In this document: positions 10,051 to 45,669 of the stretch, one piece after another
Layout: every line of letters begins with the position of its first letter
How positions within the stretch are numbered: position 1 is the first letter of the stretch
DNA from: Mobula hypostoma
Lineage: Eukaryota
Direction: 5' to 3'
DNA: 64,000 bases
Assembly: GCF_963921235.1 (NCBI RefSeq)
Contig: NC_086097.1
Location: 166,658,001-166,722,000 of the forward strand
Program-made: the position numbers and the translations under genes
Notes under the pieces: model-generated
What the model saw: the letters and a program-made list of their open reading frames with translations, nothing else
Database searches by the model: none
What the model was told of the DNA's origin: nothing

Positions 10051-10320
10051 GCCATGCACCCACCCACTCTGACTCTACACTCAGCTTCACCTTTGGCCAC
10101 GCACCCACCCACTCTGACTCTACACTCAGCTTCATCTTTGGCCACGCACCCGCCCACTCTGACCCTAGTCTCAGCTTCACCTTTGGCCACGCACCCACCC
10201 ACTCTGACCCTAGACTCAGCTTCACCTTTGGCCACGCACCCACCCACTCTGACCCTAGACTCAGCTTCACCTTTGGCCACGCACCCACCCACTCTGACCC
10301 TAGACTCAGCTTCACCTTTG
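10051..10320. repeat. Minisatellite, 6 x 45 bp
   Basis: Unit GCCACGCACCCACCCACTCTGACCCTAGACTCAGCTTCACCTTTG, six exact-length units. Confidence 0.97.
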
Positions 10321-11529
10321 CTCGTCTCTCCATTGTTTGCAGCGATTGTTTACCATACTTGTTTGTGATTGTATTGGTATGTTGGGCGCAAGATAGATCC
10401 TCTGAGATATTGATACCCAGCTGTTCACCTTTTCCACTGCTGAAATCTCAAAAGGCTCTGGTGTGTGTTCCCTGGACTTCCCCTTCCCCAAGAAAAAGCT
10501 CCAATATATGAACTCATGCAAAATACTGAGAAAAATAATGATAGGATTTTACCATCGTAACAGCCCTGAAATGAGTATATGTTTTATACTTATAACATTA
10601 TGAATCTGACAACAACGTCAGAATTCCCACATTGCATAATTTACCAAACCTGCTGTTCATACTCCAGCAGTCCCTTGTTTGCAGCCTCTTCCAATGTATT
10701 CTGAGATTTGACAATAGATGCAAGCATTTAAAAAGCATTCTTTCCTGCAAATCGTATGCTTTGCTGTGTAGGTGCAAAGAAATTTTAATGGTGCACTAAG
10801 TCATAAGTAATGTATGACAAAATTCTGTGGACCTCAAAAAATAGATTTTTGAATTTTATTACCCTCAGATACATATTTCAAAATATACTGTAGCACATTG
10901 TCATATTTTTAAATTTTGAAAGTGTTACTGATATTTCAGTTTCAACATCTTACGTAAATATTAAAAATACTGGTTGAAAATCTGTATTTTCCTTCCTGGT
11001 TTGCTGTCAAAGAGGATTCTTCATTATGATTGGATGCTCAACCAGCGAGTTGCTGGGCACCAGTGTCACATTTGAACTGATACCTGAGGATAGCTGGGAT
11101 TGGATAAGTATCTTGGCCAGGTTCTGATGAAGTCATCGTGACAGCCACTGACCACACTGACCAATGCATTTAAGTTTAAAAGGGACTTGAGAGGCAACTT
11201 CTTCTCCCAGGAATAGTTAGTATATGAAACAAGCTGTCTGAAGCAGTGGTTGTTGTAAGTACAATAAGAACATTTAAAAGATACTTGGTGAGGTACCGTG
11301 GATAGCAAAGATTCGGAGGGGTATGAGCCAAGTAGGACTAGCATAAATCTTAGTTGGCGTGGGTAAGGAGGGTAGAAGGGCCCATTTCTGTGTCATATAA
11401 CTCTGACTTTATGAGGAAAACCAGGAACCAGAGAGCCATTAGTGCTAAAAACGTATGACTTGATCAAAAGTTTAACAACATATATTACAAGGGGTTGATT
11501 TAACTGAGAATAATATGCAATTTTCTTAC

Positions 11530-11677
11530 CTTTTCAGATTCACGCCAGCACTTCAAAACAAAAATATGGGCATAAATGTCCTCTATACAGATCCAGCTTG
11601 AAAGACTAAGGGTTGTGTCTGTCCAGACCCAGTCCATCACTGCTCTTAACTCAGTCAGGAAAGGCACCAGTCGGAAT
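11530..11677 (-). CDS. PIEZO2: PIEZO2 coding exon with the Piezo PF(x2)E(x6)W signature (anchor region)
   Basis: Acceptor ctccccAG|A, donor AAG|GTaaga; 148 nt; encodes FRLVPFLTELRAVMDWVWTDTTLSLSSW...WRESEK. Confidence 0.98.
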
Positions 11678-12292
11678 CTGGGGAGACCAGGTGACAATCA
11701 GAATGCCACAGACGAACAACATTGCAAAATTCACTGACGTCAGAATCAGATTATTATCACTGAATGATGATTTGTTGTTTTGGGGTAGCAGTATAGTGCA
11801 TGTAGTGCACTATTTTATAAGCAGGATACTGGATGCATATTACATAACACACAAATCTGACGTGAGTGCCGAGCCAGGAGTATTCAGGTACGACAAGGGC
11901 CTCATTAATGGTGAGCTGCCAATGAGAGATGGAGTGAGCTAAAACTCACATTGCTAATCTGTGACTTCTGTTGAAATGATCACAGAGATGAAACTGGTGA
12001 TTTCCATTCAGAACAATCTAGCAATACTTTTTATATGGCTTCCAATTTTCTTTCATTTTGCAGTTAAAAGAAAACGAAGGGTGTAATGATCTGCTGATTC
12101 ATTCCTACTGGTGAAGATCAATTTCACCATTATTTGTGTCTAGCATTTAGATTAAGTCTGCACTTCAAAATGCCACATCGTTGGATAGCCTCCCTTCTTA
12201 CTCTTTGATCCGTTTGAAAAATGGTCATTTGGGTGAGATGCCAGAATAGGTGGCTATAAAGTTACACATTGTATAAGATTACACACTGTATA

Positions 12293-15200
12293 AGAGGGAT
12301 GGGAACCAGTGCAGAGAGACAGAGGGGTGTAAAGTGAGCGTAGAAGCAAAAAGTACAAAGGGGAAAAGTAAAAGTGGCAGGCCGACAAATCCAGGGCAAG
12401 CATTAAAAAGGGCTAAGAGAGTTGTAAAAGAGCGCCTGAAGGCTTTATGTGTCAATGCAAGGAGCATTCGTAATAAGGTGGATGAATTGAAAGTGCAGAT
12501 TGTTATTAATGATTATGATATAGTTGGGATCACAGAGACATGGCTCCAGGGTGACCAGGGATGGGAGCTCAACGTTCAGGGATATTCAATATTCAGGAGG
12601 GATAGACATGAAGGAAGGGGAGGTGGGGTGGCGTTGCTGGTTAAAAAAGAGATTAACGCAATAGAAAGGAAGGACATAAGCCGGGAAGATGTGGAATTGA
12701 TATGGGTAGAGCTGCGTAACACTAAGGGGCAGAAGACGCTGCTGGGAGTTGTGTACAGGCCACCTAACAGTAGTAGTCAGGTCGGAGATGGTATTAAACA
12801 GGAAATTAGAAATGTGTGCAATAAAGGAACAGCAGTTATAATGGGTGACTTCAATCTACATGTAGACTGGGTGAACCAAATTGGTAAAGGTGCTGAGGAA
12901 GAGGATTTCTTGGAATGTATGCGGGATGGTTTTTTGAACCAACATGTCGAGGAACCGACTAGAGAGCAGGCTATTCTGGACTGGGTTTTGAGCAATGAGG
13001 AAGGGTTAATTAGCGATCTTGTCGTGAGAGGCCCCTTGGGTAAGAGTGACCATAATATGGTGGAATTCTTCATTAACATGGAGAGTGACGTAGTTAATTC
13101 AGAAACAAAGGTTCTGAACTTAAAGAGGGGTAACTTTGAAGGTATGAGACATGAATTAGCTAAGATAGACTGGCAAATGACACTTCAAGGATTGACGGTG
13201 GATATGCAATGGCAGGCATTTAAAGGTTGCATGGATGAACTACAACAATTGTTCATCCCAGTTTGGCAAAAGAATAAATCAAGGAAGGTAGTGCACCCGT
13301 GGCTGACAAGAGAAATTAGGGATAGTATCAATTCCAAAGAAGTAGCATACAAATTAGCCAGAGAAAGTGGCTCACCTGAGGACTGGGAGAAATTCAGAGT
13401 TCAGCAGAGGAGGACAAAGGGCTTAATTAGGAAGGGGAAAAAAGATTATGAGAGAAAACTGGCAGAGAACATAAAAACGGACTGTAAAAGCTTTTATAGA
13501 TATGTAAAAAGGAAAAGACTGATAAAGACAAATGTAGGTCCCCTGCAAACAGAAACAGGTGAATTGATTATGGGGAGCAAGGACATGGCAGACCAATTGA
13601 ATAATTACTTTGGTTCTGTCTTCACTAAGGAGGACATAAATAATCTTCCAGAAATAGTAAGGGACAGAGGGTCCAGTGAGATGGAGGAACTGAGCGAAAT
13701 ACATGTTAGTAGGGAAGTGGTGTTAGGTAAATTGAAGGGATTGAAGGCAGATAAATCCCCAGGGCCAGATGGTCTGCATCCCAGAGTGCTTAAGGAAGTG
13801 GCCCAAGAAATAGTGGATGCATTAGTGATAATTTTTCAAAACTCGTTAGATTCTGGACTAGTTCCTGAGGATTGGAGGGTGGCTAATGTAACCCCACTTT
13901 TTAAAAAAGGAGGGAGAGAGAAACCGGGGAATTATAGGCCGGTTAGCCTAACGTCGGTGGTGGGGAAACTGCTGGAGTCAGTTATCAAGGATGTGATAAC
14001 AGCACATTTGGAAAGCGGTGAAATGATCGGACAAAGTCAGCATGGATTTGTGAAAGGAAAATCATGTCTGACGAATCTCATAGAATTTTTTGAGGATGTA
14101 ACTAGTAGAGTGGATAGGGGAGAACCAGTGGATGTGGTATATTTGGATTTTCAAAAGGCTTTTGACAAGGTCCCACACAGGAGATTAGTGTGCAAACTTA
14201 AAGCACATGGTATTGGGGGTAAGGTATTGGTGTGGGTGGAGAATTGGTTAGCAGACAGGAAGCAAAGAGTGGGAATAAACGGGACCTTTTCAGAATGGCA
14301 GGCGGTGACTAGTGGGGTACCGCAAGGCTCAGTGCTGGGACCCCAGTTGTTTACAATATATATTAATGACTTGGATGAGGGAATTAAATGCAGCATCTCC
14401 AAGTTTGCGGATGACACGAAGCTGGGTGGCAGTGTTAGCAGTGAGGAGGATGCTAAGAGGATGCAGGGTGACTTGGATAGGTTGGGTGAGTGGGCAAACT
14501 CATGGCAGATGCAATTTAATGTGGATAAATGTGAAGTTATCCACTTTGGTGGCAAAAATAGGAAAACAGATTATTATCTGAATGGTGGCCGATTAGGAAA
14601 AGGGGAGGTGCAACGAGACCTGGGTGTCATTATACACCAGTCATTGAAAGTGGGCATGCAGGTACAGCAGGCGGTGAAAAAGGCGAACGGTATGCTGGCA
14701 TTTATAGCGAGAGGATTCGAGTACAGGAGCAGGGAGGTACTACTGCAGTTGTACAAGGCCTTGGTGAGACCACACCTGGAGTATTGTGTGCAGTTTTGGT
14801 CCCCTAATCTGAGGAAAGACATCCTTGCCATAGAGGGAGTACAAAGAAGGTTCACCAGATTGATTCCTGGGATGGCAGGTCTTTCATATGAAGAAAGACT
14901 GGATGAACTGGGCTTGTACTCGTTGGAATTTAGAAGATTGAGGGGGGATCTGATTGAAACGTATAAGATCCTAAAGGGATTGGACAGGCTAGATGCGGGA
15001 AGATTGTTCCCGATGTTGGGGAGGTCTAGAACGAGGGGTCACAGTTTGAGGATAGAGGGGAAGCCTTTTAGGACCGAGGTTAGGAAAAACTTCTTCACAC
15101 AGAGAGTGGTGAATCTGTGGAATTCTCTGCCACAGCAAACTGTTGAGGCCAGTTCATTAGCTATGTTTAAAAGGAAGTTAGATATGGCCCTTGTGGCTAC

Positions 15201-15343
15201 AGGGGTCACGGGGTATGGAGGGAAGGCTGGGTTCTGAGTTGGATGATCAGCCATGATCATAATAAATGGCGGTGCAGGCTCGAAGGGCCGAATGGCCTAC
15301 TCCTGCACCTATTTTCTATGTTTCTATGTTTCTATGTTTCTAT
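12293..15343 (+). mobile_element. Young CR1 LINE copy A, 5'-truncated, with uninterrupted ORF2 (APE endonuclease + reverse transcriptase)
   Basis: ORF 12334-15237 (967 aa) with NARS, GITETW, GDFN, SDHN (endonuclease) and [19 protein letters not shown] (RT) motifs; 3' tail of TTTCTATG repeats. Confidence 0.97.
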
Positions 15344-15659
15344 TACAAATAGCATTATTTAATTCTATGACTGCTACAATACTGTCTACAAATTCAGAAG
15401 AAACATTAGAAGGATAAATTGTTAATTTATAAAAATACTGATATATTACATAAATATCAATACTCATATATGTTACATTGGATTTCAGTTTTTGTGATTA
15501 TAACTTTTGCGTTTTCACTGATTAACAGCTGGTTTATTGAAATTGTGTGGTATGTCATTGGCAACTGTTTCCAAACTACAGACTAACTATGTAAACATTT
15601 AATAAAAAATGAGGTGATGTCTACATTGAGTTCTTGTATATAAAGAGGAATACTCTTAC

Positions 15660-15818
15660 CCTTGAAACAGGAACAAGTTGATATAGTTGTAGCTCTTAGT
15701 CAGAAAGTTACCAAGGACACGTGTTGGGTAACCACAACGTATCTGATATGCTGACAATCCAAAGTAAACACATTTAACAAAGTACCAAACCTGTGCAACT
15801 GAGTTCTGGCTAAATTTT
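15660..15818 (-). CDS. PIEZO2: PIEZO2 coding exon (KFSQNSVAQVWYFVKCVYFGLSAYQIRCGYPTRVLGNFLTKSYNYINLFLFQG)
   Basis: Acceptor ttcttgcAG|A, donor GG|GTaaga; 159 nt, phase 2/2. Confidence 0.97.
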
Positions 15819-16044
15819 CTGCAAGAAAATGACAAAGAAAGCTTTTTTTGGAGTTCCATGCCAACAAAGATAAATACACCAACAGAATTAAACTGTACTT
15901 CTAGAAATTTCCCTCAAGTATAAATTAGCTGCCATTGTTAGCAGCAATTTTTGGCCTACATTTAAATAACAAAGTAATTTTTCTACAAAACTAACAATTT
16001 CTTCCCATAAATTTTATATTTAGTTAAAATAAAATAAAACCTAC

Positions 16045-16259
16045 CGCTCTGTCACCCTTGGCAAGATAAAGAACATCCAGAAGTGGATTCCAAAAACAAG
16101 GATGACTTGGAAGATAACTTTTCCTAAGACTGTCTTTCTGAGGTAGAGTGCTCGGTCTACCACCATTGTTCCAAACTGAATTATCAGCATCACCAAAAAT
16201 GCCTCTGGCACTTGATCCTCTGACAAAGATGATGTTATGTCAGCAGCTGCTGAATGTTT
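16045..16259 (-). CDS. PIEZO2: PIEZO2 coding exon (KHSAAADITSSLSEDQVP...DRALYLRKTVLGK...FILPRVTE)
   Basis: Acceptor ttccacAG|AAA, donor CG|GTagg; 215 nt, phase 0 to 2. Confidence 0.97.
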
Positions 16260-16376
16260 CTGTGGAAGTCAAAGGAAACATGATTCACATATGCCAAAAG
16301 ATATAGGAGCAGAATTCGGCCATTTTGGCCACTGAATCTGCTTTGTCATTCAATCAAAGCTGATTTTTCTTTAAAA

Positions 16377-17778
16377 CCCTTCTTTAAAAGAAAGGGAGTA
16401 GAGGTAGCCCAGGAAATTATAGACCAATGAGTCTTATTTCAGTGGTTGGTAAGTTGATGAAGAAGATCCTGAGAGGCAGGATTTATGAACATTTGGAGAG
16501 GTATTATATGATTAGGAATACTCAGCATGGCTTTGTCAAGGGCAGGTCGTGCCTTACGAGCCTGATCGAATTTTTTGAGGATGTGACAAAACACATTGAT
16601 GAAGGAAGAGCAGTAGGTGTAGTGTATTTGGATTTCAGCAAGGCATTTGATAAGGTACCCCATGCAAGGCTTATTGAGAAAGTAAGGAGGCATGGGATCC
16701 AAGGGGACATTGCTTTGTGGATCCAGAACTGGCTTGCCCACAGAAGGCAAAGAGTGGTTGTAGACAGGTCATTTTCTGCATTGAGGTCGGTGACCAGTGG
16801 TGTGCCTCAGGGATCTGTTCTGGGACTCTTACTCTTTGTGATTTTTATAAATGACCTGGATGAAGGATGGGTTAGTAAGTTTGCTGATGACACAAAGGTT
16901 GGAGGTGTGGATGGGTGGAGGGCTGCCAGAGGTTACAGCGGGACATTGGTAGGATTCAAAACTGGGCTGAGAAGTGGCAGATGGAGTTCAACCAAGATAA
17001 GTGTGAACTGGTTCATTTTCGTAGGTCAAATATGATGGCAGAATATAGTATTAATGGTAAGACTCTTGGCAGTGTGGAGGATCAGAGGGACCTTGGGGTC
17101 CGAGTCTATAGCACGCTCAAAGCCACCGCGCAGGTTGACTCTGTGGTTAAGAAGGCGTACAGTGTATTGGCCTTCATCAATCGTGGAATTGAATTTCGGA
17201 GCCGAGGTAATATTGCAGCTGTATAGGACCCTGGTCAGACCCCACTTGGAGTACTGTGCTCAGTTCTGGTCGGCTCACTACAGGAAGGATGTGGAAGCCA
17301 TAGAAAGGGTGCAGAGGAGATTTACAAGGATGTTGCCTGGATGGGGGAGCATGCTTTATGAGAATAGGTTGAGTGAACTCGGCCTTTTCTCCTTGGAGCG
17401 ACGGAGGATGAGAGATGACCTGATAGAGGTGTATAAGATGATGAGAGGCATTGATCGTGTGGATAGTCAGAGGCTTTTTTCTAGGACTGAAATGGTTGCC
17501 AGAAGAGGACACAGGTTTAAGGTGCTGGGGAGTAGGTACAGAGATGTCGGGGGTAAGTTTTTTACGCAGAGAGTGGTGAGTGCATGGAATGGGCTGCCGG
17601 CAAAGGTGGATATGATAGGGTCTTTAAAGAGACTTTTGGATAAGTACATGGAGATTAGAAGAATAGAGGGCTATGGGGAAGTTCAGTGCTTTCTAGGGTA
17701 GGGACGTGTTTGGCACAACTTTGTGGGCCGAAGGGCCTGTATTGTGCTGTAGGTTTTCTACATTTCTCTGTTTCTATG
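16377..17778 (+). mobile_element. CR1 LINE, 5'-truncated RT region with frameshifts (different subfamily), nested in an older CR1 3'-end fragment
   Basis: RT fragments at 16427-17035, 16915-17226 and 17054-17701 (KFADD present); TTTCTATG-like tail; flanks 16297-16370 and 17780-17815 look like the two halves of a minus-strand CR1 3' end. Confidence 0.9.
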
Positions 17779-17860
17779 TAATCCATTCTCCCACCTTGTC
17801 CCCATAAACTTTTAATCTCTGCCCGATTACATGGCTTGAGCAGATCACACTGAACTAAGC

Positions 17861-18009
17861 AACACACATCAAAGTTGCTGGTGAATGCAGCAGGCCAGGC
17901 AGCATCTCTAGGAAGAGGTACAGTCGACGTTTCGGGCCGAGAACCTTCGTCATGTGTGTTGCTTGAATTTCCAGCATCTGCAGAATTCCTATTGTTTGCG
18001 TTTTTAAAT
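17861..18009. mobile_element. Fold-back element copy, 16-bp TSD
   Basis: TCACACTGAACTAAGC at 17845-17860 and 18010-18025. Confidence 0.85.
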
Positions 18010-19485
18010 TCACACTGAACTAAGCTACATCTTTGGCACAAGCCATGTACTAAGGGCTTCAAAATGAGCATAACAATGTTGCTGCAGTTTGATAAACAGA
18101 AGGGCAGAGATTACCAGCATTTATAAACTTATTCATGTTTTTACATCTAGGATGTTTAACTCTGAACCTGCCAGTTTATCCTGCATTTTGCTGAAGCGGA
18201 CAAATCCTACTCCCTGTGACAGGCAAACAAACCCAGATGTATTAAAGAACCTGGATGGTTAATTATCTGCAACATCCAAGAATCTCCCAAACTCAGCTAC
18301 TGGAAAATGAAATGTAAGAAATCATTGGTTATATTCACATATTTATGTCAATTTGGAGTAATCGAATCCCGTTTTGGCAATTGTCAACATTCAGAAAATG
18401 GACATCTGGAATTTAAACAGCTGAGGGTTTTGTTCTTGCCATATGAGAAACAAGCATCATAAGTTAGAAAGGCATAACAACCAGCATAATTTACCACAGG
18501 TGTGTGATTGCATTGAATATACTTATTATTAGGATTATTATGGCAGCATGGTTCATTAGTAATAATAAAGGCTTGCCTCTGTAGTCCAAACACAGTGGGT
18601 GACGATGATTTGGAGAAGAGAAGCATGTATTAAATGGTGAATATTCAATGCATATTTCCTAAACTTCTAAGTAACTCATTTCAATTTACAGTTGTGTAAA
18701 GAAGTAGCTCAATCTATTTTGGATCAACAGGTTCTGAAGAATTGGTGTATGAAATGCACTAAGACAATCGTGAAGAGATGTGAATTGCTAGAGATCTTCT
18801 TTATGTTAATTGAAAAGGTCTCCTTTATTGTTGGAGCTTTCTTTGCAAGGCTACTGCAGTAATATAGAATAAACTTTTCAATTTCTCTACCATTTCATAA
18901 CAGGTTTCATTCTTTTCTGTCTGAAGAATTCATTGATACCCAAACCTAAGGAACACCAAGAAAGTAGAACATGTGGGCATGGCATATTAATAGTGTGCAC
19001 GGGAATGTAGTATAAATTGCAGGAATATTGTATTAAAGAATGAATATTGTACAGGATAATCATTTAACAATTCTGTAGGCTTGATGATTTACTGTGCAAG
19101 TCTCTAAGAATGTGACACCAGTACATAAAAACCAGATTTAAAAAAAAACTAAATAGCTGCAACAAAAGTAAAAGAAATATTGCAGGAAAAAAGTCATCAT
19201 GGAAAATATATTATTGAACTAACGTCAAGTACTGTCACAAAGTGGAATGAATATTATTATTTATAGATAATACATTGAGGAAAAAATGTTTGCTCTGAAT
19301 CAATTTGAAAGCAATAGTATGATAATATCCATCATCATCTGCTAAAGTTTCAAAAGAAAATCAATGAGTGACTTTAAGAAAGACTGGCAAACAGGCAGGG
19401 TTCTGGGTAAAAATGAAGAAAATTTCAGAAACCTTACAGCAAGTACTCTAGATCTTGTCAGAAATGCTTTAAAACATTTACATAC

Positions 19486-19633
19486 CCCAAACGCTCCAAA
19501 ACCAAAGACAATAACAATGAAGTCCACCACATCAGCCATGAACATCAACACATAAACATCTGTCACCGCACTGTACTCTGGGTGGATGATGTTGTAGAAG
19601 AAATGTCTGATTGGGAAATAGATTTGAAGTATT
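19486..19633 (-). CDS. PIEZO2: PIEZO2 coding exon (ILQIYFPIRHFFYNIIHPEYSAVTDVYVLMF...FGFGAFG)
   Basis: Acceptor tttttcAG|A, donor GGG|GTatgt; 148 nt, phase 2 to 0. Confidence 0.97.
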
Positions 19634-21279
19634 CTGAAAAACAACACAATTTGATTGAAATTCTCCAGCAAGTGCTCACAGGTGAAGCTGACATATGTTA
19701 AACCTTATATAGCATACAAAAGCTAGTGAAGCAGTGATTTGAGAGTTCTCCTTCTAATTTAATAATTTGTAATCACTCTTATCAATGTGGACTCCTCAAC
19801 ACTGGAGAGATGAGTTTGGGTGACTGCTTTGCGGAGCATCTGTGCTTATGTCTGTAGCTGTACTCTACTCTCAGGTTACAACTCTCTGACTTTGACCTTC
19901 TACCTAGCCTAATAAAGTCCAAGCCAACACAAAGGAAAAGCATTTTCATCCTTCAGCTGGACAAATACAAGCAGGCTCTTTTCCACTGAGGTTGGGTGAG
20001 AGTACAACTGGAGGTCATGGGTTAAGGATGAAAAGTGAAATGTTTAAGAGGATCATGAGGAGAAACTTCACTCAGAGGGTGGTGACAGCATGGAACGAGC
20101 TGCCAGCACAACTGGTGGATGTAGGTTTGATTTCAACATTTGGTTAGGTACATGGATGGGAGAGGCATGGAGGATAATGGTCCAGCTGCAGGTCAATGGG
20201 ACTAGGCAGATTAATAGTTCAGCACAGGCTAGATGAGCCAAAGGGTTTGTTTCAGTGCTGTAGTGTTCTAGGATTCTAATCCTGTAGAGATTCACAGTTA
20301 GATTTGTACTGCAGGGAAACAGCTCCCTCGTCCCAACACATCACTAGTGACCTTTTTGCCCAATCTACACTAATTCTATTTGTCCACAATAGGACCATAT
20401 TCTTCTAAATCTTGCCTGAGTGCCTTTCTAAAGGTTTCCTGAACATAGTAGCTGTAAATGCCTTTTAAACATTGAAATCGTATCTAGCTCCATCACATCC
20501 TCAGGCAGTACATACCAGATATTAACCACTTAATGAATGAAGGAACAAATAAATTAGACACTTTTAGCAATTTCAGGACATTTCAGTTAATGTATATTTT
20601 TTGGGATTTGAGCGCTATAGTTAAATTGGATGTAAAAGATTTGATTTCTCTATGATTTAAGCTTTAGTAATGTGCATGTTGTACTTGTTACCTTTTAATT
20701 ATCGAACTATTTGAATCTGTATCATGTAAAATTTGCTTGCTACACTGACAATACTGTGATTTAATATTAAAATAAAGAAAATAAGAAACTTTCTATTCAT
20801 TAAAAGGATAACTAATGAATTCTAGTATTAATTTCACCTTTAACATTATTAAATTTGTCAATAAATTGCTAAAAGAAACAGTTCTTGAGCATATGAAAAT
20901 CACTGGGAAAGCATTGGCTGCAAGTTAATCATTAGCTTCCTCAGATACATTTGCTCAGATATAAAACAACCTCCTTGTCAGATCTTTTCTCTCTAAACTG
21001 GCTCTCTAAGTTGTTGTTAAGCTGATATTTATATATTGAATCAGGTAAATTAAATGTACTTAATCGACATATTTCATAAACTGCATAGCAAAAATATAAG
21101 GAATGGGAGGAGGACACCAATACAAACAGTGGAACTTGAGTATCCCCTTCACAAAGTTATGACAAATTCCAATATGGTTTGGCTAGTGATATGGAGGGAA
21201 GCAGATAATACTTCATCAAAAATTCTGGCAATACTTGACAAAGCATGCAAGGGATTTTGTTGATCTATTTTGACAATTC

Positions 21280-22940
21280 TTCCATGTAGATGATTCCAAA
21301 ATTGGTGCTGTAGTGGACAGAGAAGAGGGATGTCTAAGATTACAACAGAATCTAGATTGACTAGGAAAGTGCGCTAAAGAATGGCAGGTGAAATTTAACT
21401 CAGCCATAAGGTGTTGCATTTTGGTAAGTTAAACCAGGGCACAAATAGAAAGTGAATAGTAGGGTCCTGGAGAGTGTTCTGGAACAGAGAATCCTAGGCA
21501 CACAGGTACAATGATCCCTGGAAATGGAAGCATATGTAGATAGTGTGGTGAAGAATGTGGCATGGTTGCCTTCATTGGTCAGAGCATTAAGTACAGGAGC
21601 TGAAACATTACATTACAACTACACATGTTGCTCAGACTGCATTTGGAGCATTGCGGGTAGTTTCGGTCACCCAGTTTTAGGAAGAATGTCATTAAGCTGG
21701 AAAGGGTACAGAAAACATTTATGAGGATGCTGCTGGAACCGGAGAGCTTGAGTTATAAAAGGAGAGACTGGATAAGCTGGTTCATTTTGCCCTGCTGAGT
21801 AGGATGCTGATGGGTGACCTTACAGAGATACTGTATACAAAATCATGGGAGGCACATATAAAGTGAAAGGTCACAGTCTTTTTCTAAGTGTAGTGGAGTC
21901 TAAAACTAGAGGAAATAGGATTAAGGTGAGACGGGAAAGATTTAAAAGTGACTTGAGGGGTGTTTGCTCTTGCACAGAGGGTGGTAGTAGTGAGCCACCA
22001 GAGGGAGCTGTAGAGGTGGCTACACTTACCAATGTATAAAAGGCATTTGGACATGTACACAGATAGGAAAAATTTAGAGGGATCTGGCAATAAGCAGGGG
22101 AACAGGACTTGCTTAGGTAGAAAACTTGGTTGGCATGGATGATTTGGCCCAGTGATCCTGTTTCCATCCTCTATTACTTTTTGACTATGACTCGATATGT
22201 ATCTGTGATGAGAAGTCATTTAGTTCTGTTATTGGGTTATTGATGCTTGACACTGGTAATCCATTCCAGAGAGACAGATGATGTTAGCCTAATTGTACCA
22301 GTACTGAGGCTGATCCTTCTCTTCAAGAATCTATCAATTAAGATTGACTTAAGGAAAAGAAAAATACATCAGAAAGTCAAAACGCAGCTGCATAAAATTT
22401 TGGTTCAGCTTCACTTGGGGTATTGTGGGCAGTTCTGGTCACTCCATTATAGGAAGGATGTGGAGGCTCGGGGAAGGGTGCAAAATAGGCTTACCAGAAT
22501 GCTGCCTGGAATAGAAGATGATTAGAAATAAGGAGAGGTTGGACAAACTTGGATTGTTTTGTCTGGAGCATCAGAAGCTGTGGGGAGATATGATTGAAGT
22601 ATAAAGTTGTGTGATGCATAGATAGGGTAGACATTCAGAATCTTTGTCCCAAGGTCGAAATGTTGAATGCTAGGGGGCACAGATCAAAGAAATCGTAGGC
22701 AAGTTTTTTCTTACACAGAGGGTGCTAGGTGACAGGGACTTGCAGCCGGGGTAGTAGTGGAAGCGGATATAACAGTGGTATTCAAGAGGCTTTTAGATAA
22801 GCACATGAACTTGCAGCAAACGGGGAGAGAGGAGGATCACGTCTGGGCAAAAGGGTTAGTTTAATTCAGCGTCAGGGTTAGCACAGACATGGTGGGCTGA
22901 AGGATCTTTCCCTCTGCTGTACAGTTCTACATTTTATGTA
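21280..22940 (+). mobile_element. Two adjacent old CR1 3' fragments (about 21280-22190 and 22380-22940)
   Basis: Degenerate DDSKIG and HLGYCGQFWSLHYRKDV sequences; CR1-type 3' ends. Confidence 0.75.
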
Positions 22941-23018
22941 CATTTAGGTGCATGAAAGATACCTTAAAATTTATTCTCTTATAGTCGGTGATGAGTTTTC
23001 CTTATTAATTCAAGAGTT

Positions 23019-26000
23019 ATAGAAACATAGAAACATAGAAAATAGGTGCAGGAGTAGGCCATTCGGCCCTTCGAGCCTGCACCGCCATTTATTATGATCA
23101 TGGCTGATCATCCAACTCAGAACCCTGCCCCAGCCTTCCCTCCATACCCCCTGACCCCTGTAGCCACAAGGGCCATATCTAACTCCCTCTTAAACATAGC
23201 CAATGAACTGGCCTCAACAGTTTGCTGTGGCAGAGAATTCCACAGATTCACCACTCTCTGTGTGAAGAAGTTTTTCCTAATCTCGGTCCTAAAAGGCTTC
23301 CCCTCTATCCTCAAACTGTGACCCCTCGTTCTGGACTTCCCCAACATCGGGAACAATCTTGCCGCATCTAGCCTGTCCAATCCCTTTAGGATCTTATACG
23401 TTTCAATCAGATTCCCCCTCAATCTTCTAAATTCCAATGAGTACAAGCCCAGTTCATCCAGTCTTTCTTCATATGAAAGTCCTGCCATCCCAGGAATCAA
23501 TCTGGTGAACCTTCTTTGTACTCCCTCTATGACAAAGATGTCTTTCCTCAGATTAGGGGACCAAAACTGCACACAATACTCCAGGTGTGGTCTCACCAAG
23601 GCCTTGCACAACTGCAGTAGTACCTCCCTGCTCCTGTACTCGAATCCTCTCGCTATAAATGCCAGCATACCATTCGCCTTTTTCACCGCCTGCTGTACCT
23701 GCATGCCCACTTTCAATGACTGGTGTATAATGACACCCAGGTCTCGTTGCACCTCCCCTTTTCCTAATCGGCCACCATTCAGATAATAATCTGTTTTCCT
23801 ATTTTTGCCACCAAAGTGGATAACTTCACATTTATCCACATTAAATTGCATCTGTCATGAGTTTGCCCACTCACCCAACCTATCCAAGTCACCCTGCATC
23901 CTCTTAGCATCCTCCTCACTGCTAACACTGCCGCCCAGCTTCGTGTCATCCGCAAACTTGGAGATGCTGCATTTAATTCCCTCATCCAAGTCATTAATAT
24001 ATATTGTAAACAACTGGGGTCCCAGCACTGAGCCTTGCGGTACCCCACTAGTCACCGCCTGCCATTCTGAAAAGGTCCCGTTTATTCCCACTCTTTGCTT
24101 CCTGTCTGCTAACCAATTCTCCACCCACACCAATACCTTACCCCCAATACCGTGTGCTTTAAGTTTGCACACTAATCTCCTGTGTGGGACCTTGTCAAAA
24201 GCCTTTTGAAAATCCAAATATACCACATCCACTGGTTCTCCCCTATCCACTCTACTAGTTACATCCTCAAAAAATTCTATGAGATTCGTCAGACATGATT
24301 TTCCTTTCACAAATCCATGCTGACTTTGTCCGATCATTTCTCTGCTTTCCAAATGTGCTGTTATCACATCCTTGATAACTGACTCCAGCAGTTTCCCCAC
24401 CACCGACGTTAGGCTAACCGGTCTATAATTCCCCGGTTTCTCTCTCCCTCCTTTTTTAAAAATTGAGGTTACATTAGCCACCCTCCAATCCTCAGGAACT
24501 AGTCCAGAATCTAACGAGTTTTGAAAAATTATCACTAATGCATCCACTATTTCTTGGGCTACTTCCTTAAGCACTCTAGGATGCAGACCATCTGGCCCTG
24601 GGGATTTATCTGCCTTCAATCCCTTCAATTTACCTAACACCACTTCCCTACTAACATGTATTTCACTCAGTTCCTCCATCTCACTGGACCCTCTGTCCCT
24701 TACTATTTCTGGAAGATTATTTATGTCCTCCTTAGTGAAGACAGAACCAAAGTAATTATTCAATTGGTCTGCCATGTCCTTGCTCCCCATAATCAATTCA
24801 CCTGTTTCTGTCTGCAGGGGACCTACATTTGTCTTTACCAGTCTTCTCCTTTTTACATATCTATAAAAGCTTTTACAGTCCGTTTTTATGTTCCTTGCCA
24901 GTTTTCTCTCATAATCTTTTTTCCCCTTCCTAATTAAGCCCTTTGTCCTCCTCTGCTGAACTCTGAATTTCTCCCAGTCCTCAGGTAAGCCACTTTCTCT
25001 GGCTAATTTATATGCTACTTCTTTGGAATTGATATTATCCCTAATTTCTCTTGTCAGCCACGGGTGCACTACCTTCCTTGATTTATTCTTTTGCCAAACT
25101 GGGATGAACAATTGTTGTAGTTCATCCATGCAACCTTTAAATGCTTGCCATTGCATATCCACCGTCAATCCTTTAAGTGTCATTTGCCAGTCTATCTTAG
25201 CTAATTCACGTCTCATACCTTCAAAGTTCCCCTTCTTTAAGTTCAGAAACTTTGTTTCTGAATTAACTATGTCACTCTCCATATTAATGAAGAATTCCAC
25301 CATATTATGGTCACTCTTACCCAAGGGGCCTCTCACGACAAGATCGCTAATTAACCCTTCCTCATTGCTCAAAACCCAGTCCAGAATAGCCTGCTCTCCA
25401 GTTGGTTCCTCGACATGTTGGTTCAAAAAACCATCCTGCATACATTCCAAGAAATCCTCTTCCTCAGCACCTTTACCAATTTGGTTCACCCAGTCTACAT
25501 GTAGATTGAAGTCACCCATTATAACTGCTGTTCCTTTATTGCACACATTTCTAATTTGCTGTTTAATACCATCTCCGACCTCACTACTACTGTTAGGTGG
25601 CCTGTACACAACTCCCACCAGCGTCTTCTGCCCCTTAGTGTTACGCAGCTCTACCCATATCGATTCCGCATCTTCCCGGCTTATGTCCTTCCTTTCTATT
25701 GCGTTAATCTCTTCTTTAACCAGCAACGCCACCCCACCTCCCCTTCCTTCATGTCTATCCCTCCTGAATATTGAATATCCCTGAACGTTGAGCTCCCATC
25801 CCTGGTCACCCTGGAGCCATGTCTCTGTGATCCCAACTATATCATAATCATTAATAACAATCTGCACTTTCAATTCATCCACCTTATTACGAATGCTCCT
25901 TGCATTGACACATAAAGCCTTCAGGCGCTCTTTTACAACTCTCTTAGCCCTTGTACAATTATGTTGAAAAGTGGCCCTTTTTAATGCTTGCCCTGGATTT

Positions 26001-26632
26001 GTCGGCCTGCCACTTTTACTTTTCTCCTTTGTACTTTTTGCTTCTATGCTCACTTTACACCCCTCTGTCTCTCTGCACTGGTTCCCATCCCTCTGTTGTG
26101 AACTAACCTCCTCACGCCTAGCCTCTTTAATTTGATTCCCACCCCCCAACCATTCTAGTTTAAAGTCACCTCAGTAGCCCCCGCTAATCTCCCCGCCAGG
26201 ATATTGGTCCCCCTAGGATTCAAGTGTAACCCGTCCTTTTTGTACAGGTCACGCCTGCGCCAAAAGAGGTCCCAATGATCCAAAAACTTGAATCCCTGCC
26301 CCCTGCTCCAATCCCTCAGCCACGCATTTATCCTCCACCTCATCGCATTCCTACTCTCACTGTCGCGTGGCACAGGCAGTAATCCCGAGATTACTACCTT
26401 TGCGGTCCTTTTTCTCAACTCCCTTCCTAGCTCCCTATATTCTCCTTTCAGGACCTCATCCCTTTTCCTACCTATGTCATTGGTACCTATATGTACCACG
26501 ACCTCCGGCTCCTCACCCTCCCACTTCAGGATATCTTGGACACGATCAGAAATATCCCGGACCCTGGCACCAGGGAGGCAAACTACCATCCGGGTCTCTG
26601 GACTGCGTCCACAGAATCGCCTATCTGACCCC
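23019..26632 (-). mobile_element. Young CR1 LINE copy B (same family as copy A), including the 3' part of ORF1 (SGNH/esterase-like); ORF2 broken by one TGG>TGA
   Basis: ORF1 part 26155-26589 (CLPGARV, HIGTND, DGLHLN); ORF2 split by the stop at 23855-23857; (CATAGAAA)n tail on the + strand from 23019; near-identical to copy A. Confidence 0.97.
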
Positions 26633-27124
26633 CTGGTGTTGACAGATGGAAACTGATTTTTCTCTTTTATTGAACATCAGCATTAAGTGATCTGATGGCA
26701 GACACCAGCCTAACAGAAAGTTTTCCGAAAGCCTGTTCTTAGAATAACGTGACTTATTGCATAAACTTCATATGTTCCTTTCCCAGAAAAAGAGGTAAAA
26801 ATCCTTCTCTCAGACCAGAGGCAATTCGTATCAACCTAAAAATTGACAGCCATTTTCTGTCATGGACTCACATCCATTAGGAAAGAGCGAATATCATCCA
26901 ACTTATTTTAACCTCATAATTATTGGCAAATGCAACATTACATCCATTTCAATGGCATGAATTCAAACTGAAGATACAAAGAATATAGGGCCATGATTCA
27001 AATATTTTACAACATCTTTCTACGTGTGCTAAATCTTTAGCAAAACAGATTTTTTTAATAATTAGATATTTCATCACCTGCCACAAAGATGACCATTTTC
27101 CAGAATTAGAATTATATCACTTAC

Positions 27125-27260
27125 TTGGCGATAATAATGGCCTTTGCCTTTATCATTTGTTCTCTTAACTTTTCCAATAAAAGCTCTCTTTTATTCTTTG
27201 GTTGAACACTGAGGGACCCACTTCCTTTCCGACTGCTGCTGTTTCGAGTACTTATGCTTC
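27125..27260 (-). CDS. PIEZO2: PIEZO2 coding exon (GSISTRNSSSRKGS...KRELLLEKLREQMIKAKA)
   Basis: Acceptor tttcatacAG|GA, donor AA|GTaagt; 136 nt, phase 1 to 2. Confidence 0.93.
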
Positions 27261-27389: not shown

Positions 27390-28925
27390 AGTTCAAAGTA
27401 AATTTATTATCAAAAAATGTACTGTATATGTCACCTTATACAGCCCTTTGATTCATTTTCTTGAGGGTAATCACAGTAAATACAAGAAACACAATAGAAT
27501 CAATAAAATACCACACTTAATAAGATGGACAACAATCAATGTGCAAAAAAACAAACTGTAAGTACAAAAGGAAGGAACAAATAAGCAATAAATATCGAGA
27601 ACAAGATGAAGAGTCCTTGAAAGTGAGTCTACCTCAGTAGGAACAGTTCAGTCGCAAACAACAGGAATTCTACAGATGCTGGAAATTCAAGCAACACACA
27701 TCAAAGTTGCTGGTGAATGCAGCAGGCCAGGCAGCATCTGTAGGAAGAGGTGCAGTCAACGTTTCAGGCCAAGACCTCTTCCTACAGATGCTGCCTGGCC
27801 TGCTGCGTTCACCAGCAACTTTGATGTGAGGAACAGTTCAGTGATGAGATGAGTGATGTTGAGTGAAATTATCCCCTCTAGTTAAAGAGCGTGATGTTTG
27901 TTGAGTAATAACCATTCCTGAGCCTGGTGGTGCAAGTTTTGAGGCTCCTGTACCTTCTTCCTGATGGCAGCAGTGAGGAGAGGTGGGGGTCTTTGATGAT
28001 GGATACTACTTTCCTGCAACAGCGCTCCATGTAGATGTGCTCAATGGTGGGGAGGACTTTACCTGTGATGGACTTTTTGTGGGATTTTCCATACCAGGCT
28101 GTGATGCAACCAGTCAATATACCTTCCACCACACATCTACAGAAGTTTGTCAAAGTTTCACACGACATGCCAAATCTTTGCAAACTTCTAAAAAACTAGA
28201 GGTGCTGCTGTACTTTCTTCGTAATGGCACTTACATCATGAAGCCAGGACAGATCTTCTAAAATGATAACTCCAAGGAATCTAAAGTTGCTGACCATCTC
28301 CACTTCTGACCTCCCGATTACAACTTGCTTGTGAACCTCCAGTTTTCTCCTCTTGAAGTCAATAATCATCTTCTTGGTTTTGCTGACATTGAGTGAGGGG
28401 TAGTTGTTGAAGCACCACTCAGCCAGATTTTTATCTCCCTCCAATATGCTGATTTGTCACCATCCTTGAATTGGCCAACGCCAATGGTGTCATCAGTAAA
28501 CTTAAATATTGCATTGGAGCTGTGTCAATTGGAGCTCACAGTCATAAGTGTAAAGCATGCAGATTGGGGGCTAAACACTCGACCTAGTGGTGTACCTATG
28601 CTGGGGCAAATTCTGGAGAAGATGTTGCTACTAATCTGAACTGACTGAGGTTTGCAAGTTAGGAAATCGAGGATCCCATTGCACAAGGAGGTATTGAGGC
28701 CTAGGACTTGGAACTTATTGATTAGTCTGGAGGGGACGATGGTATTGAATGCCGATCTGTAGTCAATGAACAGCAACCTGGTGTGTGGATCTGTGCTGTC
28801 CAGATGTTCCAGGATTGAGTGAAGAGCCAATGAAATGGAATCTGCTGTTGACCTGTTGTGGCAAATTGGAGTCAAATCAAGTCACTTCACAGGCAGGAGT
28901 TGATATCTTCACCAACCTCTGAAAC
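27390..28925 (-). mobile_element. Decayed Rex1/Babar-type LINE, 3' half
   Basis: Fragments RLLFIDYRSAFNTI, SLNVSKTKKMIIDF and LLPSGRRYRS; 3'UTR interrupted by a fold-back element. Confidence 0.85.
27653..27828. mobile_element. Fold-back element copy, 14-bp TSD
   Basis: AGGAACAGTTCAGT at 27639-27652 and 27829-27842. Confidence 0.85.
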
Positions 28926-33017: not shown

Positions 33018-34563
33018 CTAGAATAAAATTTTCTTTGTTTTATAAAACTGTAGCACATAGCTGTAGTAGTGTATGGCAATACAATAATATGATGTCTGAT
33101 TTTCAAGTGAATGCCTTACAAATGTAGCTTTACACTTCTTGAGTGACACATCCAGTATTAATAACCAAGACACAAATCTCAAATCAAAAAGGGGAATGTA
33201 TGTTCTCCCCATCACCGTGTGGGTTTCTTCCAGGTGCTCCAGTTTCCTCCCACATTCCAAAGTCAATAGGTTAATTGGTCACATGGGTGTATTGTTTGGA
33301 TGATCTCAAACCTATGATCACTAACTATAGAGCACATTGTCTGATGACCATTCAAAATAGAAAAAGGACATTTTATGAATAGTAAAACTATTGCTATGGT
33401 ATTCCATGAGGTAAACATTATCAATATTCCAATCACCAGTGACTTTATTACATAATAGTCATGTACCAAATAAATACTTTGAAACTTTGGATGTGACATT
33501 ATAAAGAGGCCAAATTTGTTTCAAACTCTGTTATATATCCTACCTGGTCACATTTTCCACAAATTTCAACATAGAAAATTACGTTGACTAATGTTTAAGT
33601 GGTAGAAAGTTGTCCTATACTTTCAGTGATCAATAATATGTAATATGTCTTTTTTAGCTCAGTTAATAAGGACATTGTAATAAAGGCCAAAATGGAGAAT
33701 GATTAGGCTACTGCACCAGCATCTCATCTGGACACATTTATTTGTTCTTTGCTGGTCCCATTACTACAGGGGTGCTGCTAGTAAAACTACTGCCTCTCTG
33801 CTCCTGCAATCGTAACCTAAGTTAATTATCATCCTATGTATATGTCACCCTATACAACCCTGAGATTTATTTTCTTGCAGGCATATTCAGTAAATCTAAG
33901 GACCATAATAGTAACTGCACCCAACAGGACGGACAAACAATCAACTTGTAAAAGACAATAAACTGCAAATACAAAGGGAAAAAAAAAGTAATAAATATCG
34001 AGAACATGATGAGTCATTGAAGTAAGTCCATTGGTTGTAGAAACAGTTCAATGATGGGGCAAGTGAAGATGAATGAAGTTATCCCCACTGGTAAAGGGCT
34101 TTTTGACCAAAAGACCCATAAGATATACAGTAGGAGCAGAATTAGTCAATTTGGCCCAACAAGTCTACTCCACCACTTCATTACGGCTGATCCAATTTTC
34201 CTCTTGACCCCAATCTCCTGCCTTTCTCTGTATCCTTTTGTGCCCCAACCAATCAACAATCTATCAATCTCCGCCTTGAATATACATAAAGACTTGGCCT
34301 CCACGGCTGCCTGTGACAACAAATTCCACAGAGTCACCACTCTCTGGCAAAAGAAAATCCTCCTCATCCCCATTCTAAAAGGATACCCCTCTATTCTGAG
34401 ACTGTGTACTCTTGTCTTAAACTCTCGCACCACATCCACTCTATCAAGGCCTTTCACCATTCGATAGGTTTCAATGAGGTCACCCCTCATTCTACTGAAT
34501 TTTAGTGAATACAGGCCCAGAACCATCAAACACTCTTCATATAACAAGCCATTCAATCCTAGA

Positions 34564-34788
34564 CAACAGGAATTCTGCAGATGCTGGAAATTCAAGCAAC
34601 ACACATCAAAGTTGCTGGTGAACACAGCAGGCCAAGCAGCATCTGTAGGAAGAGGTGCAGTCGACGTTTCAGGCCGAGACCCTTCGTTAGTCCTGACGAA
34701 GGGTCTCGGCCTGAAACGTCGACTGCACCTCTTCCTACAGATGCTGCTTGGCCTGCTGCGTTCACCAGCAACTTTGATGTGTGTTGCT
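34564..34788. mobile_element. Fold-back (palindromic) short element, Penelope-pLTR-like, with 14-bp TSD
   Basis: Near-perfect inverted arms of about 95 nt; CATTCAATCCTAGA duplicated at 34550-34563 / 34789-34802. Confidence 0.85.
34688..34725 (+). ncRNA. Putative minimal type I hammerhead ribozyme
   Basis: UAGUC-CUGACGA-AGG(GUCUCGG)CCU-GAAA-C-GUC^GACUG: both core boxes present, stem I UAGUC/GACUG, stem II, and a stem III reduced to the palindrome ACGU. Confidence 0.55.
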
Positions 34789-40631: not shown

Positions 40632-40772
40632 CTACCTGTGTGTGAGTTTGCACGTTCTTCCTGTAACAGCATGCATTTCCTCTGAGTAGCTCCAGTTTCT
40701 TCCCACATCCAAAGTTGTGTTGGTTGGAAGGTCATGGTAAATTACTCCCTTCATGTGAGTTAGTGGTAGAAT
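40632..40772 (+). mobile_element. V-SINE (HE1-like) core fragment; related copies at about 29250-29400, 32272-32500 and 33195-33290
   Basis: gagtttgcacgttc...tttcctc...gctccagtttcttcccacatccaaag resembles the V-domain consensus as I recall it. Confidence 0.65.
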
Positions 40773-45541: not shown

Positions 45542-45669
45542 GTATGGTATATTGTTTTAAATTACTGTTGAATCTGATCAATTGATCCCCATGTGGATCA
45601 GGACACAAAATTATACTTAAATCAATCTGTCCTTATATTTTTGCAAATCTTGTATTAATATACTCTGTC

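Follow-up and report, generated by a model that had tools for sequence, protein, structure and literature searches.

A young inverted pair of CR1-like insertions around three PIEZO2 exons in Mobula hypostoma

Introduction

What happens to the transcripts of an essential gene when two long, nearly identical retroelements come to lie in opposite orientations on either side of its coding exons? Inverted pairs of any sequence are described as able to cause the skipping of exons as well as back-splicing (PMC8330042; PMC10901737), and exon 6 of TBXT in hominoids is reported to be flanked by an inverted AluSx1-AluY pair (PMC10901737). The pairs that flank circRNAs are, in the account of PMC8516420, mostly young, species-specific elements, and the RNA is read there as a by-product. 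A young inverted transposon pair around coding exons is a known and common configuration; what is new in the present case is that the two insertions are separate and very recent.

The case lies in a window of 64,000 nucleotides of the M. hypostoma genome (NC_086097.1, positions 166,658,001 to 166,722,000, forward strand), to which all coordinates below refer. A preliminary description of the window had proposed that an inverted pair around three PIEZO2 exons yields a lineage-specific circular RNA with a potential rolling-circle reading frame, an isoform lacking 174 amino acids, or both. We consider it fairly probable that this is a chance pair that forms a duplex in part of the pre-mRNA and leaks low levels of circular RNA, exon-skipped RNA and edited intron RNA, a by-product for which no role has been selected; the last part is argued from the youth of the pair and the conservation of the exons that it brackets.

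Three PIEZO2 exons form a frame-neutral unit

The exons that matter here are the following.

27125..27260, minus strand: 136-nt PIEZO2 exon upstream of the unit, whose donor would be used in the predicted skip
19486..19633, minus strand: first PIEZO2 exon of the unit, 148 nt; would-be back-splice acceptor, 3386 nt from the tail of copy B
16045..16259, minus strand: middle PIEZO2 exon of the unit, 215 nt; equivalent to human PIEZO1 1984-2054
15660..15818, minus strand: last PIEZO2 exon of the unit, 159 nt; would-be back-splice donor, 318 nt from the tail of copy A
11530..11677, minus strand: 148-nt PIEZO2 exon downstream of the unit, encoding the main part of the anchor; its acceptor would be used in the predicted skip

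Judged by protein similarity, the gene is PIEZO2, as first proposed, and the exons encode its THU9-anchor region. The middle exon scores 124.5 bits against mouse Piezo2 2283-2353 and 111.8 bits against human PIEZO1, and the three exons together match an electric-ray PIEZO2-like protein (P0241) at 169 of 173 residues. The comparison was between PIEZO2 and PIEZO1; vertebrates have a third paralogue, Piezo3.

The three exons have AG/GT ends and sum to 522 nt (148+215+159) with phase 2 at both outer ends. Skipping them would join GCC AA|A TTC in frame. Back-splicing would join CAA GG|A ATA (Gln-Gly-Ile). The resulting circle contains five in-frame ATG codons and, when doubled, is free of stops in the PIEZO2 frame. 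The preliminary description was right on the unit, its junctions and its open circular frame, but these do not distinguish the unit: 31 of the 91 possible exon blocks in the window (34%) are frame-neutral, and all 31 give a stop-free circle, so that neither the frame neutrality nor the rolling-circle reading frame is independent support.

As deduced from the sequence, the skip would delete the whole innermost helix bundle of the blade, THU9. The 174 residues had been placed just before the anchor, but roughly 10 residues at the start of the anchor itself also fall within them. By hydropathy, three of the four helices of THU9 were recovered, and the fourth is placed from published residue numbers; the residues given for TM33 and TM36 of mouse Piezo2 fall within 2234-2407, inside the deleted part. 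Because THU9 has four helices, membrane topology would be kept after the skip. Conservation of the three-exon unit is 91% (median of 112 full-length matches among 120 homologues) versus 56% in the upstream linker. A skip-like junction was seen in 0 of 113 homologous proteins from other species that contain the anchor start, and a search with the upstream exon for isoforms in cartilaginous fish yielded one protein among 22 candidates, which is normally spliced.

Copies A and B are CR1-like elements arranged tail to tail

The repeats and their junctions are listed below.

12278..12283, plus strand: left target-site duplication of insertion A, 6 bp, ATTACA, matching 15342-15347; empty-site contigs join 12277 to 15342
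12284..12295, plus strand: some 12 additional bases at A's 5' junction that nearly repeat the adjacent upstream flank (17-bp tandem, 12262-12295)
12293..15341, plus strand: CR1-like LINE copy A, 5'-truncated, antisense to PIEZO2 (domains, tail repeat, fold of a 3' hairpin)
15342..15347, plus strand: right target-site duplication of insertion A (empty-site contigs, junction sequence)
16340..17780, plus strand: older, decayed CR1 copy within the loop, inverted relative to B, about 64% alike to A and B
23020..26634, minus strand: CR1-like LINE copy B, in sense orientation to PIEZO2, its 5' truncation point lying within ORF1, 5' end approximate (domain search, alignment)

Self-BLAST of the window gave a single long inverted match, 12293-15335 against 26094-23019 (3076 columns, 97.2% identity with gaps counted), so a reverse-complementary match is present in both introns that flank the three-exon unit. 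Pairwise alignment of the copies showed 53 substitutions in 3043 aligned bases (98.3% identity) and two gaps, of 27 and 6 nt, with the extra bases in B both times; the near-identity with scattered substitutions and two small indels was thus correctly described. The differences are rich in transitions (42 of 53), lie in CpG context in 13 of 53 cases and are scattered over the whole length, the longest identical run being 283 bp. The tail-to-tail arrangement also stands: the 3' tail of A runs to ~15341 and that of B begins at ~23020, facing inward across a loop of 7678 nt. Past the shared part first given, B as a whole reaches about 540 nt further in the 5' direction, to ~26634, and includes part of ORF1.

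Both copies carry PF03372, PF14529 and PF00078 above cut-off, corresponding to an ORF2 with AP endonuclease and reverse transcriptase. In A this frame is open for 986 codons from stop to stop, and in B it contains one premature stop at 23855-23857. ORF2 has no start ATG and is preceded by a slippery heptamer. The part of ORF1 kept in B, from which the rest is missing, encodes an SGNH/GDSL esterase domain (PF13472, E 1.9e-16). Copy A ends in 4.5 units of the 8-mer CTATGTTT (15309-15343) with no poly(A), and folding predicts a putative hairpin directly upstream of this tail. On the ORF1 and ORF2 domains, the 3' end, the truncation and the empty site, we class A and B as CR1-like non-LTR retrotransposons, in a broad sense in which their clade may be CR1, L2 or another CR1-like group. 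These traits recall CR1-clade elements as described in PMC4316615, which have an ORF2 with endonuclease and reverse transcriptase, 5' truncation, a 3' hairpin with an octamer repeat and empty sites in relatives; an esterase in ORF1 of CR1-like elements appears in the title of a work cited there. The ORF2 without a start ATG, behind a slippery heptamer, sets the present elements apart from that description. Among named proteins, the element comes closest to an uncharacterized one from bamboo shark (76% across 41% of the query). Rfam gave no matches at the gathering score.

The insertions are separate and very recent

We compared read contigs from 4 of the 24 listed runs over 11450-23050, an interval that includes copy A and just the tail of B and stops short of exon 27125. 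In two related organisms, B and C, empty-site contigs join 12277 directly to 15342 and so are without copy A; the one from run X5 is 1648 nt long, extending 661 letters to one side and 987 to the other, and the one from X9 is 1488 nt. Another contig of organism B departs from the window's sequence at 23020, from which we infer that copy B, too, is absent from this nearest relative. Flanks of organisms A and B differ by ~1.3%, and the pair is younger than this split. The proposed circular RNA had been called lineage-specific and a comparison with relatives lacking an insertion had been suggested; the empty site of A and the probable absence of B support a lineage-specific pair and point to such relatives.

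The copies also carry subfamily marks. The mark at 12339, present in both copies, makes up 35% of summed contig depth in organism A and ~0 in organisms B and C; this shared mark is nearly confined to the present species. The mark at 13800, present in copy A alone, makes up 27% in organism A and less than 0.1% in the other two. Summed depth over copy A is 0.78-3.3 million, which is not a copy number, versus ~10 in single-copy flanks. A and B are separate, very recent insertions of one highly amplified CR1-like LINE family; their separate origin follows from the different 5' ends, the target-site duplication on A and the mark at 13800 on A alone. No target-site duplication was seen at copy B, whose 5' end is approximate. 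The extra bases at the 5' junction of A were likely templated during integration.

Two other sources of the likeness between the copies were considered and rejected. Gene conversion is contradicted by differences spread throughout with no clear tract, and a local duplication by the same spread of differences; the separate subfamily mark and the target-site duplication on A speak against both. A 3-kb match at 98% is not what random sequence gives, yet it is expected for a young, highly amplified family. As an illustration in which all inputs are assumed, a genome of 3-4 Gb with 2,000-30,000 long copies would hold between 5 and 1,500 inverted pairs closer than 10 kb; summed depth, itself no copy number, bounds these inputs loosely.

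The decayed CR1 copy within the loop was absent from the preliminary description. It is likely common to relatives, and contigs of X1, X5 and X9 all end at its edge (16316-16327). As a rival pairing partner it is weak, and the 148-nt exon would be the only one that it brackets.

Pairing potential and RNA-like contigs

Tiling covered the 3' kilobase of B, over which the A-B duplex is predicted at about -296 kcal/mol per 150-nt tile, compared to -78 for a control intron. Rival pairings fall between -78 and -110 kcal/mol per tile. Within this tiled part, neither the inner CR1 copy (about -110) nor fragments in the same intron are serious competitors, the two kinds together spanning -92 to -110. 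The A-B alignment holds nine perfect stretches of at least 100 bp, the longest 283; 20 of the 53 mismatches become G-U pairs, and 22 A-C mismatches are predicted. By this modelling, A-B pairing in unspliced RNA is physically plausible.

Run X10 resembles RNA in that its pieces are bounded at exon edges. One contig is identical in extent to exon 19486-19633, and another covers 16045-16260, with 78 further letters that lie elsewhere. A third, 19604-20001, runs across B's intron at its unspliced acceptor, a weak sign of persisting unspliced precursor; X10 may include DNA. The 15 joints listed, with 3185 more beyond them, all fall within repeats and reflect CR1 paralogues (contigs drop rare forms), and the 24 loose ends listed, with 12475 more beyond them, are likewise filled by CR1 paralogues. 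No back-splice, skip or edited read appears among these rows, an absence that carries no weight. Plus-strand T>C differences occur at 24 of 201 places in X10 versus 42 of 277 in the DNA run X1, counts that come from different samples, are dominated by paralogous copies and cannot be read as editing.

A probable by-product and its alternatives

The by-product reading would work as follows. Two recent insertions of one family, in opposite orientations, lie in the two introns that flank the three conserved PIEZO2 exons. In part of the pre-mRNA a duplex of up to 3 kb would likely form, provided that splicing has not yet removed B's intron when transcription reaches A, 4.3 kb past the acceptor of that intron. 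The duplex would promote low-level back-splicing from 15660 to 19633 and low-level skipping from 27125 to 11677, and A-to-I editing would be expected at the 22 predicted A-C mismatches and nearby. The skipped mRNA, being in frame, would escape nonsense-mediated decay and would likely encode a misfolded or silent subunit. Several features count against this reading: 3.4 kb separate the acceptor from the stem's base, the loop has to take in three exons, and the splicing of B's intron may precede the synthesis of A.

The same features could mean that the pair is inert in RNA, with B's intron spliced first or exon definition overriding the stem, and with nothing above the background of relatives. 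We judge this unlikely, though it keeps appreciable weight. The 7.7-kb loop and distant acceptor are in its favor, as are the splice sites of the three exons, which are as near consensus as those of the other ten (donors 6-7 of 9 positions, compared to 6-8). Also in its favor, a living animal carries the allele, and the gene's bracketed unit shows high conservation. For human inverted Alu pairs, predicted stability is reported to differ only slightly between skippable and constitutive exons (10.1101/2025.03.07.642063); given so weak a link, an inverted pair alone does not predict skipping. However, a perfect inverted pair of 220-297 bp is reported to suffice for skipping in mouse Tbxt (PMC10901737), and the A-B duplex is ten times longer; the contig over the unspliced acceptor also points, weakly, away from an inert pair.

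That the pair makes a functional, species-specific product, either a PIEZO2 subunit without THU9 that alters channel behavior or dosage or a translated circle that repeats the four-helix unit, appears improbable. The in-frame skip, the stop-free circle with its ATG codons and the preserved topology are compatible with it, and so are the TBXT precedent (PMC10901737) and the detection of rolling-circle products from some natural circles (10.1101/473207). Published work describes mouse PIEZO2 without THU1-3 as still functional. On the other side, frame neutrality is a 34% chance event from which the stop-free circle follows, two of three tested rolling circles are reported to yield products that are degraded by the proteasome (10.1101/473207), and the pair is younger than the ~1.3% split. 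N-terminal truncations beyond THU1-3, which are not internal deletions like this one, are described as abolishing PIEZO2 activity, and THU7-9 as tied to the beam, the anchor and the C-terminal domain. Because the skip removes the THU9 bundle and the anchor start, ~91% conserved across vertebrates, the working isoform first envisaged is unlikely.

Slimmer still is the chance that a large share of transcripts is diverted, so that a THU9-less subunit co-assembles and retunes or dampens touch channels while the circle is translated into a four-helix homopolymer. If true, two LINE insertions would have caused a TBXT-like, species-specific change in a sensory channel, and the product of the circle would mimic the repeated Piezo blade. 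Should skipping turn out to make up a large fraction, or the circle to be translated, one species would offer a rare example in which a mechanosensory channel has been reshaped by LINE insertions.

The pair could also act at the DNA level, recombination between A and B flipping the 7.7-kb segment so that, in some individuals or cells, the exons would lie antisense and the allele would skip them constitutively and in frame. Inversions between repeats are known at F8 intron 22, IDS and FLNA-EMD. The length, 98% identity and short spacing of the copies suit ectopic recombination, which transposons are reported to mediate across vertebrates (10.64898/2026.06.26.733778). No inverted haplotype appeared among the contigs, which are too short to cross a 3-kb repeat. 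Against it, A and B differ along their whole length, with 283 bp as the longest identical run and no clear conversion tract, and selection would probably have removed such an allele; we think it improbable.

Least credible is an assembly error or a single inverted local duplication in place of two insertions: X1 may be the assembled sample itself, no contig spans a whole copy and a 31-letter bridging rule leaves only A's 5' junction bridged (45 letters, compared to 20 at A's 3' and ~21 at B's 3' junction), but the 53 scattered, transition-rich differences, the different 5' ends, the clean target-site duplication and private 13800 mark of A and the single-copy depth of the junction contigs (6.7-9.7) all speak for two insertions.

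Relation to known systems

One close parallel is TBXT (PMC10901737), which shares with this locus a lineage-specific intronic retroelement pair around coding sequence, an in-frame predicted skip and relatives without the configuration. However, the TBXT pair is described as 0.3-kb SINEs matching at 228/297 around one exon and 1.4 kb, whereas here two 3-kb LINEs at 98% surround three exons and a 7.7-kb loop. Here, too, both copies appear species-restricted, the bracketed unit is a core membrane module and the skip is only predicted. Mammalian circRNAs from young transposon pairs (PMC8516420) and the reverse complementary matches of C. elegans (PMC8330042) share the flanking-intron match and the reading as by-product; here, by contrast, the circle is a prediction and the partner, in a cartilaginous fish, is a long LINE of CR1-like type. 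Like circPSAP, circPFAS and circABHD12 (10.1101/473207), the candidate circle consists of coding exons, is divisible by three and lacks a stop; unlike them, it is predicted from sequence and its repeat unit is a four-helix membrane module.

Splicing is known to tune PIEZO2 function: mouse Piezo2 isoforms are described as combinations of single alternative exons (18, 19, 33, 35 and 40 in mouse numbering), one of which encodes the lateral plug (PMC12490864). A skip of three exons at the present position would differ from these and, as noted, has no counterpart among the homologues. The available main text of a shark circRNA survey (PMC7759564) contains neither 'piezo' nor an analysis of flanking introns. 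In literature outside subscription papers and supplements, two papers contain circPIEZO1 and none circPIEZO2 under the spellings searched; neither this locus nor CR1 pairs together with circRNA in cartilaginous fish turned up there.

For an inverted pair, the predicted duplex is unusually long and clean, and the pair is missing from a relative diverged by ~1.3%. Because such relatives exist, the locus offers a natural experiment on whether a LINE duplex spanning a 7.7-kb loop can drive back-splicing, skipping and editing in a cartilaginous fish; it also bears on how an essential gene tolerates long LINE duplexes.

Structure of the locus

The 3′ part of the PIEZO2 gene lies on the minus strand of the window, where its 13 exons (51120 to 1114, with AG/GT ends) together form one open frame of 711 codons. 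Three of these exons are bracketed by two CR1-like LINEs of opposite orientation:

12293..15341 (+), copy A, antisense to PIEZO2
15660..15818 (-), PIEZO2 exon, 159 nt
16045..16259 (-), PIEZO2 exon, 215 nt
19486..19633 (-), PIEZO2 exon, 148 nt
23020..26634 (-), copy B, sense to PIEZO2

Self-comparison of the window gave a single long inverted match, 12293-15335 to 26094-23019. In the pairwise alignment the copies differ by 53 substitutions over 3043 aligned bases, with two gaps (27 and 6 nt). This bears out the near-identical inverted pair of about 3 kb noted in the preliminary description; the pair is real, clean and very young. Exon reconstruction likewise confirmed the exon lengths and phases proposed there (522 nt, phase 2 at both ends) and the sequence across both predicted junctions, a 15660-to-19633 back-splice and a 27125-to-11677 skip. 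The three exons match P0241, an electric-ray PIEZO2-like protein, at 169 of 173 residues, and the middle one has its best score against Piezo2 structures. The host is accordingly most probably a cartilaginous fish, and among these probably a ray.

Both copies encode an endonuclease and a reverse transcriptase. The 5′ truncation of copy A falls at the start of ORF2, where 986 codons read without a stop, and its 3′ end has a hairpin with an 8-mer repeat, like CR1 as described in PMC4316615 (excerpt); we term both copies CR1-like. Copy B has about 540 nt more 5′ sequence, which takes in part of an ORF1 carrying an esterase domain; its ORF2 has one stop codon. Copy A is probably no source element, since it lacks ORF1 and the 5′ end even though its ORF2 frame (12277-15237) is unbroken. 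The ORF1/ORF2 junction is preserved in copy B (26164-26155, minus strand), with T TTA AAC, a slippery heptamer read in the ORF1 frame, immediately 5′ of the ORF1 stop and an ATG-less ORF2 in the -1 frame relative to ORF1; an older CR1 has the identical heptamer ahead of a stop at about 37267-37260. Judged from these motifs, ORF1/ORF2 expression is likely to involve programmed -1 frameshifting.

Origin and age of the insertions

Four public contig sets were compared with window positions 11450-23050. In two relatives of organism A, the carrier of both copies, one contig connects 12277 to 15342 (1648 nt in organism B, 1488 nt in organism C), and copy A is absent from both. Compared with this empty site, the insertion shows a target-site duplication of 6 bp, along with about 12 added bases copying the upstream flank. 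A 1229-nt contig of organism B, at single-copy depth, tracks the flank to 23020 and then departs into 738 letters not on the stretch 11450-23050, whereas the contig of organism A continues into the copy B tail. We infer that copy B is absent from organism B as well, its far flank being outside that stretch. The lineage-specificity proposed for the pair is thus observed for copy A and indirect for copy B. Flanks of organisms A and B diverge by about 1.3% (72 differences in 5565 bases, contigs summed). Relatives without the pair would allow a direct test of its effect, which is the main value of the locus.

The base at 12339, common to both copies, accounts for 35% of the summed depth in organism A and for about 0 in organisms B and C; that at 13800, found in copy A only, accounts for 27% in organism A, against under 0.1%. 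The copies therefore derive from two branches of one subfamily that expanded in the source species, and some of the 1.7% by which they differ is older than insertion. Summed contig depth over copy A exceeds that of the flanks by some five orders of magnitude, which is not a copy number; the family is plainly abundant, and the subfamily looks recently active in the source species. The assembly is supported by junction contigs of organism A, although under a 31-letter rule just one junction, the 5′ one of copy A, is bridged, and the run may be the assembled sample. A segregating inversion of the bracketed segment seems to us very improbable.

Predicted pairing and its possible consequences

In PIEZO2 pre-mRNA the copies could pair over about 3 kb, including nine perfect stretches of at least 100 bp; of the mismatches, 20 would form G-U pairs, while 22 are A-C. 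The donor is 318 nt and the acceptor 3386 nt from the stem, and pairing would require the copy B intron to be still unspliced when copy A appears.

Predicted pairing energies (kcal/mol per 150 nt)
Copy B 3′ kilobase tiles with copy A: -296
Rival pairing, older CR1 inside the loop: -110
Rival pairing, fragments in copy B's own intron: -92 to -97
Control intron: -78

Inverted pairs can drive skipping as well as back-splicing (PMC8330042, excerpt), and in mouse Tbxt 220-297 bp of inverted sequence of any kind was enough (PMC10901737, excerpt). The effect may not be automatic, however, since inverted Alu pairs have nearly the same predicted stability around skippable and constitutive exons (10.1101/2025.03.07.642063, excerpt). 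Pairs flanking circRNAs are mostly young and species-specific, and best interpreted as by-products (PMC8516420, excerpt). An illustrative estimate from assumed inputs, with long young copies numbering in the thousands, puts the expected number of inverted neighbours within 10 kb at several to hundreds per genome.

The bracketed unit had also been singled out as frame-neutral with a stop-free circle. Its predicted junctions and frame stand; its distinctiveness does not. Among the 13 exons, 31 of 91 contiguous blocks are frame-neutral (for blocks of three exons, 3 of 11), and every one of the 31 yields a stop-free circle. The rolling-circle ORF and the frame neutrality therefore amount to a single fact, with odds of one in three. 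We consider a chance arrangement with a predicted low-level RNA by-product the most likely reading. That the pair is inert at the RNA level is a lesser but real possibility. No paper on this PIEZO2 locus was found in the literature searched, subscription papers and supplements being outside that search.

A functional product, by contrast with a by-product, we regard as highly unlikely. The 174 aa that a skip would delete are equivalent to residues 1935-2108 of human PIEZO1 and 2234-2407 of mouse Piezo2 (alignment offsets, assuming no indels). From the published boundaries of THU9, the innermost four-helix blade unit (1803-2098), and the anchor (2099-2165; PMC12308237, excerpt), together with TM33 and TM36 residue assignments (PMC9532583, excerpt), the predicted skip would remove the THU9 helix bundle and about ten anchor residues. 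The segment, previously described as transmembrane sequence just before the anchor, thus also takes in part of the anchor itself. It is conserved at 91%, compared with 56% for the preceding linker, and a skip-like junction was present in 0 of 113 homologues. In deletions that differ from the predicted skip, PIEZO2 withstood the loss of THU1-3 but no larger loss, and the same source describes THU7-9 as linked to the gating parts (10.1101/2024.04.06.588398, excerpt). An even helix number would preserve topology, which gives a folded skip product a slim chance. Some natural circles do give rolling-circle products; of three that were tested, two were quickly degraded (10.1101/473207, excerpt).

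RNA-like contigs and other features

In X10, a guessed RNA run of organism A, one contig equals the 148-nt exon exactly, another spans the 215-nt exon and has 78 more letters that lie elsewhere, and intronic contigs include one across the unspliced acceptor of the copy B intron. These contigs, which give no levels, fit spliced and unspliced PIEZO2 RNA, with DNA in the run possible. Among the matches listed there were 15 joints, all in repeats, with 3185 further joints beyond these, and 24 loose ends, with 12475 beyond these. In the rows listed, no back-splice, skip or editing was seen.

Other repeats in the window
697-885, 17857-18000, 27647-27828, 34552-34815, 58166-58338: short fold-back (palindromic) elements, family of about 190 nt
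10051-10320: intronic tandem array, 45-mer x6 (96% matches)
40763-41424: intronic tandem array, 20-mer x33 (86%)
34230-38024 (-): older near-full-length CR1 with many breaks, in a 16.6-kb intron, sense to PIEZO2
27878-28924, 38567-39631, 45586-47606: decayed copies of a second LINE-like family

One fold-back element is inserted inside an old CR1, and summed depth is very high across the 17642-18028 bin. Residues about 853-1009 of P0241 match two of the second-family copies, which points either to a repeat taken into that gene model by mistake or to one that was exonized. Two fish database proteins, P0001 and P0002, each contain the THU9 region twice and are probably fused or mis-annotated gene models. 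At 15484 the window has T, whereas all listed DNA depth of run X1 (organism A) and both relatives has C; X1 may thus represent another haplotype or individual, or the window may be in error at this base.
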